Shown here in pieces: positions 4,534-30,355 of a stretch of 64,000 nt of DNA. The translations under genes and the position numbers were made by a program. Where the stretch lies: assembly GCA_963780335.1 (NCBI GenBank), contig CAWABJ010000001.1, positions 1,747,152 to 1,811,151 on the forward strand. Reading direction: 5' to 3'. Source of the stretch: an uncultured Actinomycetota bacterium (GTDB taxonomy: Bacteria; Actinomycetota; Actinomycetes; Mycobacteriales; Mycobacteriaceae). How positions within the stretch are numbered: position 1 is the stretch's first letter; every line of letters begins with the position of its first letter. The notes under the pieces were generated by a model. The model did no database searches. It was not told where the DNA came from and saw nothing but the letters and a program-made list of their open reading frames with translations.

Positions 4534-5184
4534 ATGCGGCGCGACCGTCATTCCCATCAGCAGTGCGACCGATTGTGCATTGTCATCGTGTCCGATATCC
4601 GGCTCTATCGAGAAGGCTTGGCTCGCGTTTTATCGCAGCTGCCGGATGTCGAGACGGTGCGCACGTGCGAATCAGCGGCCGACGGCGTCGGCGTCGTCAC
4701 CCACGTCGCGCCAGACATCATCCTGTTGGACATGTCGGCACTCGGCAGCGCCTCCTCGGCGAGGTTGTTTTCTCGCGAACTCCCGACAGTGAAAATCGTC
4801 GCCCTGGCGGTACCCGAGACCGAGCGTCATGTGCTGGCATGTGTGGAGGCAGGTGTCATGGGCTACGTCTCGCGTGAGGGTTCCATTGACGACCTGGTGT
4901 GCGCAATCAGGCATGCCGCGCGCGGGGAGGCGCTGTGTTCTCCGTCCATCACGGGGGGCTTGATGCGCCGTGTGGCGATGCTCGCCCACGACGACTGCGT
5001 CACAAGTCGCCTTACCCGACGTGAACTCGAGATAGCCGAGCACATCGCCCTCGGGACCACCAATCGCGGGATCGCGATGAGCCTTGGGATACAGCTGTGC
5101 ACGGTCAAGAACCATGTCCACAACATTCTCGACAAGCTTGGCGTCGAGCACCGCGCCGACGTCGCAGCGCGCATCCGCCAGTGA
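4534..5184 (+). CDS. NarL/LuxR-family response regulator (REC + HTH)
   Basis: PDIILLDM phospho-acceptor region; LTRRELEIAEHIALGTTNRGIA...TVKNHVHNILDKLG. Exact start uncertain. Confidence 0.9.
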   Translation: MRRDRHSHQQCDRLCIVIVSDIRLYREGLARVLSQLPDVETVRTCESAADGVGVVTHVAPDIILLDMSALGSASSARLFSRELPTVKIVALAVPETERHVLACVEAGVMGYVSREGSIDDLVCAIRHAARGEALCSPSITGGLMRRVAMLAHDDCVTSRLTRRELEIAEHIALGTTNRGIAMSLGIQLCTVKNHVHNILDKLGVEHRADVAARIRQ

Positions 5185-5452
5185 GGCACCACTAAATCCG
5201 AGCCCGCAACTCTTCGGACCGCCTGCGCCGCCGGTGCGTTCCCAGCAGCGGGCAGGTCTGCGCATCGCCGCCGTTCTCGCATCAGGGGGATCTCGGGGAT
5301 CAAGACCGACAACCGGCGGCCACCGAGGATCCGGACCGGGGTGGAGGTCAGACCAGATCTCTGGATCCGTTCGAATTCCCGACCGGAGATCCATTGCGTC
5401 CGAGGCCATTCGGTGGCGTTACTTATGTGAACGATCGTCGAGCCTTACCGGG

Positions 5453-5845
5453 ATGGACATGACCGACAACGACGCGCAGCACGAAGCGATGGACGTCGCG
5501 CTTGTGTCGTGCTCCGGAATCCTCGGTGACGTCATACGCCTCAGCCTGGCGGCGGTCTCCGAGGTCGCTGTCATCGCAGATCTGCGGTTCGACGGTGTCA
5601 CGCAATTGACTAAGGCTCTCCACCAAGCCGATCCCGACGTGGTGGTCTGGATGCTTGACGATGAGCGCACCATCGCCGAGCACGCCGAGTTGTTCCAGGT
5701 AGACCGCGGCCCGTCCGTGATCGCTGTGCTGGACGACGGCCGCCGCACCGCCTGTTGGCAACTGCGTCCCTGCCGAACCGTCCTCGATCCTCCCTCCATC
5801 GACAACCTCGTCAACGCGCTGCGCGATGCGGCGGCGTCGCGATGA
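5453..5845 (+). CDS. Stand-alone receiver-like (pseudo-REC) protein
   Basis: VALVSCSGILGDVIRLSL...DPDVVVWMLDD...PSVIAVLDD...SIDNLVNALR fits a REC beta/alpha pattern. C-terminal part of ORF 5084-5845. Confidence 0.55.
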   Translation: MDMTDNDAQHEAMDVALVSCSGILGDVIRLSLAAVSEVAVIADLRFDGVTQLTKALHQADPDVVVWMLDDERTIAEHAELFQVDRGPSVIAVLDDGRRTACWQLRPCRTVLDPPSIDNLVNALRDAAASR

Positions 5846-28704: not shown

Positions 28705-28747
28705 GTGCCATCTCCATCGAGTAGACGCGCATACGGCTACCGAACGC

Positions 28748-30355
28748 TCACTGCGACAGCGGAATCTCGATCTCCACCGTCATCGCGTCAACCTGACGGA
28801 ACGTGCCGCCGTACTTGGCGACGACCGGGCCCATCTTCAGAATGTTCTTGTTGACGACGACCTTGCCGACTATGCGCAACTTGGTCGCGCCCGCCGCTCG
28901 CGCCTCGGCCATCAGGCTCTTGAACAACTTCAGCAGCGGGCCGACACCGACGTCGGTTGTCGGCTTCTCAATGCTCTTCAACCCATATATCTCACGCTCG
29001 AACGTGTTGCCCTTCAGCCCCTTTTCACCGTAGATCCGAAAGTCGCCCACCTTCTCGCCACCGCCGGGATCTCCTTGCCGAACGGGACTGGTTGGTTGGT
29101 CGACGACTGTTTCGGGGACAGCTGTTTCGCCTGTGGAACCACGGCCACCCGACGGCCCGCCGGATCGAGAACCAGTTGTCAGCAGTGGCTCGGGAGCCGG
29201 TGGTGGCACCGGTGCCTTGGCCCCTCCGACGCCGACCGCTTCGGGGGAGGGCAGGTTGAACGGTGTGCTGGTGGGTAGGCCCCGCGGTCCAAGGGCGATC
29301 GGCCCGCTTGGTCCTGGGGTGGGCAACACCATCGTTTCCGCCGTCACGGCGAGCCTGGCCATCCCACGATTGATTGCCTCCGCACGGCTCATACCGCTTT
29401 CACGGTCTTTACGGAACTGCTGGATGTTGCTCGAACACGGTTCGGTGTGCTCGCAGACGAAATGCACCAGCCGGGTGAACCGCGACGGTTTGTCCTCCTC
29501 GTTGTGCGACAGTTGCCAGAGGCGGGTGTTGTAGAGGTCGTGGGCCTCCGGATCGTCGTGGACGGCTTTCTCCATCTGGTCCACATAGGGCTGCCGAACA
29601 TAGCCATTCACCTTGGGATCCCAATACAGATCCAGTGCAAAGGCTTCCTTGACGTCTGCATCGTTGTAGGACGGGCCGCCGTCCCAGAACTCGTGGCGCC
29701 GCGCCTGCCTGTCGGCCAAGGTCAGCGCCATCGAGAGGAGCTTGTTGTGGCCCGCGTACTCCTGAAGCAGCGCGTCGGATTCCTTGTCGGTGAAGCCGCC
29801 CGGTGAGAACCTCGACGACACCACGCCGGGTCTCGCGGCGGGGGCGTCCTCGGTCGTATCGTCGGTCCGTGCGGCGGCCTCGGCCTCCGCGACTGCCTTG
29901 GCCCGCTCGTCGTCGGCTGGCGCGCATGCCAATCCGATTCCCGACGTTGGCAGGGTCGTCGATACACGTTGTCCTGCAAGGGCGTCGCGGGCCGTGGCGT
30001 CGGCATTCACCTCGAGATCACCGTTAAAGGCCGGCTGACGAAGAGTGCCGGACGCGGGCTCCTGCTGGATCGTGTGCACTAACTCGTGTGCCAGCAGTTG
30101 GCGCCCGCGCTCAGTGCCTGGCGCGTACTGGCCAGCGGCGAATGCCATATCCGTGCCCACTGTGTAGGCGCGGGCGTGAACGGCCTCGGCCGAGGCGGCC
30201 GCACCATCATCGGTATGTATGCGGACCCGGCTGAAGTCACGACCAAAACGGTTCTCCATAAAGCGCCGCGTGCCGACGTCCAACGGTTGTCCCGGTGTTT
30301 GCACGATCGCCCGCACGACAGGCGGAACCGTGCCCGGAGTGGTCGAGCGCCGCAT
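28748..30355 (-). CDS. Second DUF4157 (eCIS_core) effector with an unknown C-terminal domain
   Basis: PGQPLDVGTRRFMENRFGRDFSRVRIHTD...ARAYTVG...LLAHELVHTIQQ; Pro/Gly linker; Lys-rich ~105-aa C-terminal domain. Confidence 0.85.
   Translation of the reverse strand: MRRSTTPGTVPPVVRAIVQTPGQPLDVGTRRFMENRFGRDFSRVRIHTDDGAAASAEAVHARAYTVGTDMAFAAGQYAPGTERGRQLLAHELVHTIQQEPASGTLRQPAFNGDLEVNADATARDALAGQRVSTTLPTSGIGLACAPADDERAKAVAEAEAAARTDDTTEDAPAARPGVVSSRFSPGGFTDKESDALLQEYAGHNKLLSMALTLADRQARRHEFWDGGPSYNDADVKEAFALDLYWDPKVNGYVRQPYVDQMEKAVHDDPEAHDLYNTRLWQLSHNEEDKPSRFTRLVHFVCEHTEPCSSNIQQFRKDRESGMSRAEAINRGMARLAVTAETMVLPTPGPSGPIALGPRGLPTSTPFNLPSPEAVGVGGAKAPVPPPAPEPLLTTGSRSGGPSGGRGSTGETAVPETVVDQPTSPVRQGDPGGGEKVGDFRIYGEKGLKGNTFEREIYGLKSIEKPTTDVGVGPLLKLFKSLMAEARAAGATKLRIVGKVVVNKNILKMGPVVAKYGGTFRQVDAMTVEIEIPLSQ

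Follow-up and report, generated by a model that had tools for sequence, protein, structure and literature searches.

An actinobacterial contractile injection system on a genomic island of an environmental-type Mycobacterium, probably disabled by recent frameshifts

Some bacteria carry toxin-injecting machines that resemble phage tails. Here we describe the genes for such a machine, an extracellular contractile injection system (eCIS), in a 64,000-nucleotide stretch of DNA (hereafter the window; contig CAWABJ010000001.1 of assembly GCA_963780335.1, positions 1,747,152 to 1,811,151). We hold with good confidence, on sequence grounds, that positions 4534-30379 of the window carry the complete gene set of a phage-tail-derived contractile injection system (CIS) on an acquired island, that its layout is of the IIa/IIc-like kind within lineage II, and that the machine is most likely disabled here. 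The source genome comprises 6.28 Mb in 4 contigs, with 68% G+C. The host is confirmed as a Mycobacterium of the environmental type. This agrees with a preliminary description of the same DNA, which had placed the host in the Mycobacteriaceae: Mycobacterium sp. 852013-50091 is a member of the same GTDB genus, the genome has three matches to the PPE family that exceed the cut-off, and the window carries MmpL and MDMPI_N genes in the flank of the locus. The RpsL of the genome is 97.6% identical to that of M. tuberculosis, which we take as a lead only.

Genes were called from the codon-position GC signal of this high-G+C window, then tested against Pfam and NCBIfam. Between 4534 and 30379 the plus-strand genes are tightly packed, many with overlapping stop and start codons. 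For comparison we used Mycobacterium sp. 852013-50091_SCH5140682 (G207) and two further genomes of the same genus (G103 and G081). The genes of the locus are as follows.

4534-5184, plus strand: LuxR-family response regulator with receiver and GerE helix-turn-helix domains (Pfam GerE E 9.5e-15, Response_reg E 2.7e-9); 83% identical to the G207 orthologue, which has the same position
5453-5845, plus strand: small conserved open reading frame (ORF) of ~130 amino acids in the gap between regulator and sheath (codon-position GC signal; conserved in G207; receiver-like by eye)
5884-7485, plus strand: contractile sheath (Pfam Phage_sheath_1/1C; best solved relative 8BKY)
7504-8028, plus strand: inner tube protein (Pfam Phage_T4_gp19 E 9e-40)
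8033-8734, plus strand: lineage-II accessory protein, T4_baseplate-like (Pfam PF12322 E 2.8e-8; syntenic in all related loci)
~8740-9429, plus strand: Ala/Pro-rich protein, start uncertain (coding signal; 50% identical to its G207 counterpart)
9436-10680, plus strand: cap or tail terminator of the Afp16/Cis16 type, DUF4255 (Pfam Pvc16_N E 5.7e-35)
10677-12746, plus strand: AAA+ ATPase of the Afp15/Cis15 type with a winged-helix N-terminus (Pfam AAA E 1.4e-25, WHD E 4e-23)
13000-13632, plus strand: second tube-like protein, a putative tube initiator (weak Pfam CIS_tube E 1.5e-3; syntenic Amycolatopsis and Streptomyces genes are 60-72% identical)
13643-13972, plus strand: small LysM-like or tail-X protein, part of Afp7 (weak Pfam Phage_tail_X E 3.9e-3; a separate gene in all related loci)
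13998-15119, plus strand: putative hub, the gp27-like half of a split VgrG (conserved position; weak VgrG hints from PDB 9rce, E 0.037, and NCBIfam VgrG_rel, E 0.01)
15116-15634, plus strand: spike with gp5-like OB domain (Pfam Phage_base_V E 2.7e-8)
15645-15974, plus strand: putative PAAR-like spike tip (Pfam PAAR_motif E 8.9e-4, below cut-off; conserved position)
15971-16335, plus strand: gp25-like sheath initiator, in two frames (GPW_gp25 on the C-terminal piece, 16087-16335, and on the intact G207 orthologue)
16332-19097, plus strand: Baseplate_J protein 1 of the Afp11/Cis11a type (Pfam Baseplate_J; NCBIfam TIGR02243 E 1e-100, over cut-off)
19094-22360, plus strand: Baseplate_J protein 2 with C-terminal LysM (Pfam Baseplate_J and LysM, the latter 23 bits against a cut-off of 20.9; TIGR02243 E 5e-77, over cut-off)
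22357-24481, plus strand: conserved protein, probably of the baseplate periphery, in the Afp12/Cis12 position, in two frames (position conserved in related loci; intact G207 orthologue of 707 amino acids)
24494-25885, plus strand: DUF6519 protein (eBAP5), a fibre or crown candidate (Pfam DUF6519 E 1.4e-75)
25882-28704, plus strand: cargo 1, with DUF4157 and a putative deaminase-like domain (eCIS_core E 1e-29; match within 25756-28704)
28748-30379, minus strand: cargo 2, with DUF4157, convergent to the operon (eCIS_core E 1e-30; 73% identical to its G207 orthologue)

The sheath, tube, gp25, Baseplate_J and spike genes by which a CIS or eCIS is recognised thus lie in one cluster, with gp25 frameshifted in the assembly, and the markers specific to eCIS (the Pvc16_N cap, the AAA+ ATPase and two eCIS_core proteins) are all present. 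The preliminary description had called this a near-complete eCIS. Every component that it listed lies at the place given, as borne out by Pfam and NCBIfam matches for the sheath, tube, DUF4255, ATPase, spike, both Baseplate_J, DUF6519 and both DUF4157 proteins, and the component set is indeed full; what it overlooked is that two baseplate genes are frameshifted. Our annotation adds the T4_baseplate-like gene (8033-8734), the Ala/Pro-rich gene (~8740-9429) and the small ORF (5453-5845), the last two of which matched no family in Pfam or NCBIfam. NCBIfam likewise gave no match for the second tube-like and the LysM-like proteins. The protein in the Cis12 position (22357-24481), previously listed as a tail protein, matched nothing in Pfam or NCBIfam nor, either alone or as a four-sequence profile, in PDB, and PDB sequence searches with Baseplate_J protein 1, the DUF6519 protein and the T4_baseplate-like protein gave nothing useful; the outer baseplate proteins have no close relatives among the solved structures in PDB. 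Exact-sequence look-ups with the sheath and tube proteins returned no match.

The subtype of the machine can be judged from its layout. Two afp11 genes are found in subtypes IIa and IIc, and in IIa, IIb and IIc a gp27 ORF and a gp5 ORF together make up a split afp8; in the Streptomyces type, subtype IId, afp11 is single and afp8 contiguous, and divergent afp12/afp13 genes are present in IIa and mostly absent in IIc (Chen et al. 2019, PMC6899500). In the window, the two ORFs at 16332-19097 and 19094-22360 both match TIGR02243, the spike matches Phage_base_V, and the hub is a separate ORF here and in all relatives, its gp27 nature being suggested by weak matches. The afp12 position is occupied by a conserved gene and the fibre position by the DUF6519 (eBAP5) protein, neither of which is detectably similar to Afp12 or Afp13. 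The single cis11 and contiguous cis8 of IId are not found; instead there are two Baseplate_J genes and a hub split from its spike. Downstream of the baseplate genes, where IId has a CisA-like adaptor, stand the DUF6519 protein and the DUF4157 cargoes. No CisA-like gene (a transmembrane segment plus a sugar-binding domain) was recognised among the island genes, where no direct search for CisA homologues was made. By layout, the locus would therefore belong to dbeCIS lineage II, IIa/IIc-like and not IId.

Related loci were gathered by a search of genome contigs with the sheath protein, leaving out the window's own genome; no Mycobacterium was among the best 80 matches of that search. The second tube-like protein, the LysM-like protein, the hub, the spike and the PAAR protein are separate genes, in the same order, in the loci of Amycolatopsis, Streptomyces, Crossiella and others, and G207, G103 and G081 show the identical order of separate genes. 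The split Afp7, split VgrG and doubled Baseplate_J that had been noted earlier are real, and they are the normal IIa/IIc layout rather than defects. The idea that these splits are breaks was rejected, separate genes being typical of the lineage. The intracellular precedent from Streptomyces, which the preliminary description had brought forward, does not transfer directly: because the layout is IIa/IIc-like rather than IId, the Streptomyces model should not be assumed.

Among solved sheath structures the closest is 8BKY, matched over its full length (E 4e-76), followed by 9EZM from a haloarchaeal clade IIa system. 8BKY is the sheath of the Streptomyces CIS-Sc (PMC10066040). CIS-Sc (S. coelicolor/venezuelae; IId; PDB 8BKY, 8BL4 and 9GTP) resembles the present locus in its actinobacterial host, LuxR-type regulation, ATPase, cap and lack of a tape measure gene. 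It differs in that its Cis11 is single, its VgrG contiguous and a membrane adaptor, CisA, present; our locus combines two Baseplate_J genes and a split VgrG with a DUF6519 protein and a LysM extension. The clade IIa CIS of Halogeometricum borinquense (the 'archaeal T6SS', or type VI secretion system; 9EZM) has the clade IIa-type layout that the present locus resembles, with Cis11a/b, Cis12/13 and DUF4157 effectors. It comes from an archaeon, is anchored in the membrane, and has a conserved membrane-protein gene as well as toxin-immunity pairs; none of these features is seen here. The lineage I systems Afp (Serratia) and PVC (Photorhabdus) are similar in their sheath, tube, gp25, Baseplate_J, spike, ATPase, cap and 3'-end cargo, but their three sheath paralogues, tape measure, adenovirus-like fibres and contiguous VgrG set them apart, and they are much more distant, with sheath matches confined to the C-terminal domain.

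Two baseplate genes of the locus do not read through in one frame. The gp25 gene runs in one frame over 15971-16096 and in another over 16087-16335, with the break in a short G run at ~16080-16090. The gene in the Cis12 position runs from 22357 to ~24100 in one frame and from 24086 to 24481 in another, with the break at ~24105-24115, outside homopolymers. In G207, G103 and G081 both genes are single-frame (in G207 the intact proteins have ~120 amino acids for gp25 and 707 for the Cis12 position), and a DNA alignment with G207, which is 80% identical, has a single-base length difference at each of the two break sites. All other genes match G207 end to end in one frame (cargo 1 is absent from G207). 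Programmed frameshifting was considered as an explanation and rejected, given that the orthologues are in one frame.

The two breaks could both be assembly errors, which would leave the locus intact and functional in the living strain. This is somewhat unlikely, yet it has evidence of its own. In the same assembly rpoC is also split over two frames, in a conserved stretch outside the window that is not a homopolymer (G000:C3:178742-178763); rpoC being single-copy and essential, its split must be an assembly indel error. One of the eCIS lesions, that of gp25, sits in a G run, and the remaining eCIS genes are intact and under purifying selection. What tells against two errors is the rate at which frame splits occur elsewhere. 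In a paralogue-based screen no more than 21 candidate split genes turned up in the ~2.15 Mb of coding DNA that could be tested. A direct screen took 716 ORFs from an 800-kb portion of a relative (G001) and compared syntenic sub-regions; it was somewhat insensitive, since only ORFs of at least 150 amino acids were used. Across 325 orthologue-like genes, with 326 kb of coding DNA aligned, it found one true split, that of rpoC; a second apparent split was rejected as a plain gene boundary. The background is thus ~0.3 to at most 1 per 100 kb, which predicts 0.06-0.2 splits in the 20-kb structural region versus the 2 seen (Poisson P ~0.002-0.02). To judge from these sequence comparisons, at least one of the two lesions is probably genuine. 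The rpoC error itself bears on every frameshift call in this genome.

Relative to G207, dN/dS is 0.04-0.23 at dS 0.5-1.1 in all 15 genes or gene pieces compared; the lineage is therefore under purifying selection, and any inactivation here would be recent. To our knowledge, gp25 is a core part of the baseplate wedge that all contractile systems need. Given this need, the strong conservation of the gene in the Cis12 position and the loss of frame in both, the machine has probably been disabled recently in this strain. In G207, the closest relative, it is intact and under purifying selection.

The 26-kb region itself is a horizontally acquired genomic island. It is bracketed by a 300-nucleotide direct repeat, 98% identical between its copies at 651-950 and 31678-31977, which belong to the following features.

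651-950, no strand assigned: left copy of the repeat, from a tyrosine-recombinase element (repeat search; Phage_integrase fragment at 425-1183)
30502-34542, minus strand: tyrosine-recombinase gene trio with the right copy of the repeat, 31678-31977 (Phage_integrase at 33385-34542, E 9e-20, and at 31566-33200, E 2.4e-5, below cut-off)

IS3 fragments lie at 1623-2958. Homology with G207 is limited to 4451-25879 and 28748-30489, and the flanks differ. It is these repeats, recombinases, IS3 fragments and homology ends, together with the position of the locus on the sheath tree described below, that point to an island and to horizontal transfer.

A locus with phage-derived sheath, tube and baseplate genes, flanked by genes of mobile elements, might also be the tail module of a defective myovirus prophage, or an R-type tailocin. 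This is extremely improbable. A Pfam search of the ORFs over 22 kb upstream and 34 kb downstream found no capsid, portal, terminase or lysis gene; the flanking ORFs encode recombinases, IS fragments, a HerA-like ATPase, metabolic enzymes, regulators, MmpL and the like. Adjacent capsid or terminase genes were what the preliminary description had named beforehand as the sign of a prophage tail, and its choice of an eCIS holds. The eCIS markers Pvc16_N, AAA+ ATPase, DUF4157 cargoes and DUF6519 are present, and the flanking recombinases make up a recombinase-trio element rather than a phage. The prophage-tail reading was rejected because head genes are absent from the flanks.

Two observations concern the DNA around the island. 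The stretches 1-4500 and 34000-40000 have 59-64% G+C, compared with 68% for the genome, and contain fragments of integrase genes and of IS3; the eCIS is thus embedded in a wider mosaic of foreign DNA. A 45-nucleotide family with a palindrome of the CGTCAC-A-GTGACG type occurs at 197-241, 1064-1108, 1250-1294 and 34677-34721, adjoining the recombinase genes and their remnants. These four copies are probably recombination sites of the recombinase element.

How common are such loci in the host group? The GTDB genus has more than 400 species, and among the 401 genomes of the genus that were searched 36 have a sheath homologue and 25 the Pvc16_N cap gene (~6% of species), the latter nearly always beside a sheath. 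A family-wide survey found the cap gene in 14 of 401 genomes and in 7 of 34 genera. The lineage of the window (86% sheath identity) is common only to G207 among the 401 genus genomes. On a tree of sheaths from the related loci, built with no dbeCIS reference sequences, the window and G207 fall inside an actinobacterial clade, with full support, that also contains Crossiella, Streptomyces sp. NPDC032940, Segeticoccus, Amycolatopsis and G081, and the G103 sheath lies elsewhere, with Microbacterium. From this separation it follows that the genus acquired such loci more than once.

Mycobacterial eCIS loci had been catalogued before, in 6 of 2589 Mycobacterium and 1 of 97 Mycolicibacterium genomes, e.g. 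in Mycobacterium sp. JLS (NC_009077:995621-1028642) and M. wolinskyi CDC_01 (Geller et al. 2021, PMC8213781). These loci resemble ours in host group, kind of cluster, a GerE regulator adjoining the operon and DUF4157 proteins, a likeness drawn from their description and not from sequence; they differ in being catalogue entries without experiments. The rarity in mycobacteria that the preliminary description implied is contradicted by these counts. It was right that no mycobacterial eCIS has been functionally characterised, in so far as our literature searches found no functional study of one, nor of any CIS from a mycolate-walled bacterium. The locus is thus an ordinary member of a catalogued but functionally unstudied class, which is sporadic rather than absent in the host group.

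One G207 contig (G207:C130) carries two different CIS loci (16393-17976 and 86699-88219), each with its own Pvc16_N gene; their sheaths are 86% and 35% identical to that of the window. In the complete genome G081 (C1, ~6038150-6040050; L091/L092), matches to the eCIS ATPase pass through three successive frames within ~100 nucleotides. The G081 ATPase gene thus seems to carry two nearby frameshifts, and damage or mis-assembly may be frequent among the eCIS loci of the genus.

The working of an intact machine can be sketched by analogy with CIS that have been studied. The LuxR-type response regulator would switch on one long, translationally coupled operon. A baseplate of hub, spike, PAAR tip, gp25, two Baseplate_J proteins, the protein in the Cis12 position and a DUF6519 crown or fibre anchor would nucleate the tube-and-sheath polymer, which the Pvc16_N cap would terminate. 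The AAA+ ATPase may help to load the proteins with an N-terminal DUF4157, i.e. the deaminase-like toxin and the weakly GNAT-like protein, and contraction of the sheath would then push tube, spike and cargo across a membrane.

Some points weigh against the account given so far. The hub, the PAAR-like protein and the protein in the Cis12 position are identified mainly by position. The rpoC error shows that assembly indels exist, and either eCIS frameshift could be one. The island holds no lysis cassette, membrane anchor or immunity gene, and we only infer where the machine would fire, be it outside after lysis, inside the producer or from its membrane.

For this site of firing there are three models. 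Released particles are the mode of Afp and PVC. The LysM domain of Baseplate_J 2 and the DUF6519 anchor point to a particle that binds an outer surface with glycans, and for this reason we lean, tentatively and at somewhat less than even confidence, to an extracellular mode in which the particle would bind cell walls. DUF6519 is eBAP5, a baseplate-anchor domain of candidate fibre and crown proteins (PMC12923769). The LysM (residues 1027-1062) is common to G207, and the matches in G103 and G081 end before it; it may be a lineage-specific add-on for surface binding.

Ranked below this is a CIS-Sc-like mode, unlikely in our estimate, in which the particle would lie free in the cytoplasm and fire inside the stressed producer, leading to regulated cell death with no need to cross the mycolate envelope. 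Cytoplasmic firing in the Streptomyces IId system is the precedent, and there it needs CisA (PMC10066040, PMC12237407). CIS-Sc 8BKY is the best solved relative of the sheath, the host is actinobacterial, no fibre with a recognisable receptor-binding domain was found, and there are no immunity genes beside the cargoes. Yet the two Baseplate_J genes and split VgrG depart from the IId layout, the island genes include no recognised CisA-like gene (subject to the limit on that search given above), and the LysM and DUF6519 speak for binding to an outside surface.

The third mode, which we consider quite improbable, is that of the haloarchaeal IIa system, anchored in the cytoplasmic membrane and firing outward on contact, as a T6SS does. 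In the haloarchaeal case firing is contact-dependent, DUF4157 proteins are secreted, and the anchored mode is correlated with the presence, in the cluster, of a conserved gene for a membrane protein (PMC11566945). The IIa-like layout, the second-best solved sheath match (9EZM) and the DUF4157 toxins all accord with this. The membrane-protein gene tied to anchoring has no counterpart, as the island encodes no separate membrane protein; moreover, an S-layer is much thinner than the envelope of a mycobacterium, and toxin-immunity pairs are not seen.

There is also a more speculative reading. The lineage that is intact in Mycobacterium sp. 852013-50091 could be a working machine adapted to a mycolate-walled, diderm-like producer, docking to peptidoglycan through the LysM of its Baseplate_J and through DUF6519, with a route of release or firing undescribed for any CIS; we regard this as doubtful. 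The host envelope raises the question of how a phage-tail particle on the scale of 100 nm would be released through, or act within, a mycomembrane, and our searches found no study of a CIS from a mycolic-acid bacterium. The locus does not make this question newly testable, since such loci are already catalogued and occur in ~6% of the species of the genus, and since the present copy is probably broken. Of more practical use are an intact, closely related locus in a named isolate (Mycobacterium sp. 852013-50091), a layout of the IIa/IIc-like kind and the definition of two cargo families, of which one is a deaminase-like toxin and the other is conserved, with an end that is weakly GNAT-like.

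The cargo region varies: cargo 2 is retained in G207, which has three other DUF4157 ORFs in place of cargo 1. No immunity gene is evident beside either cargo. In cargo 1 a DUF4157 domain with HELAH motif is followed by a domain of ~160 residues, a Gly-rich hydrophobic hairpin and a Cys-rich tail. The ~160-residue domain has 233 relatives, placed either C-terminally in large proteins of various kinds or after a DUF4157 domain. Across 45 relatives an H-x-E motif is invariant, as is one Cys of a C-x-x-C motif, the other being nearly so. Pfam matches to Toxin-deaminase are below cut-off throughout (E 4.6e-3 for the window; 5 of the 45 relatives, best E 2.6e-4), and we offer a deaminase-like toxin as a weak, putative assignment. 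A comparable protein is EAT11 of Amycolatopsis nigrescens, a DUF4157-deaminase whose toxicity has been shown in both E. coli and yeast (Geller et al. 2021, PMC8213781). The likeness is one of architecture and not of sequence, an N-terminal DUF4157 with a deaminase-type toxin; cargo 1 differs in adding the hydrophobic hairpin and the Cys-rich tail.

Cargo 2 has a DUF4157 domain with HELVH motif; in an AlphaFold (AF2) model with a mean pLDDT of 72, its middle domain is helical and its C-terminal domain, of ~100 residues, has an alpha/beta fold. The best PDB matches of the C-terminal domain are GNAT acetyltransferases (Foldseek E 0.007-0.06, best 6.6e-3), by which the modelled end may be weakly GNAT-like. 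Full-length relatives occur in other phyla, e.g. in Bradyrhizobium. Metagenomic relatives of ~425-433 amino acids (P0022, P0025-P0030 and P0032-P0034) are without DUF4157, and the helical plus C-terminal module therefore also exists on its own.

Beyond the recombinase trio, the window holds further genes. Just past the trio, at 35191-36683 on the minus strand, genes for a 2OG-Fe(II) oxygenase and a GlcNAc-type glycosyltransferase (PF11397) are adjacent. A peptidase of the thermolysin family (M4) is encoded at 37692-38996 on the plus strand, with a weak match, below cut-off, to the protealysin propeptide.

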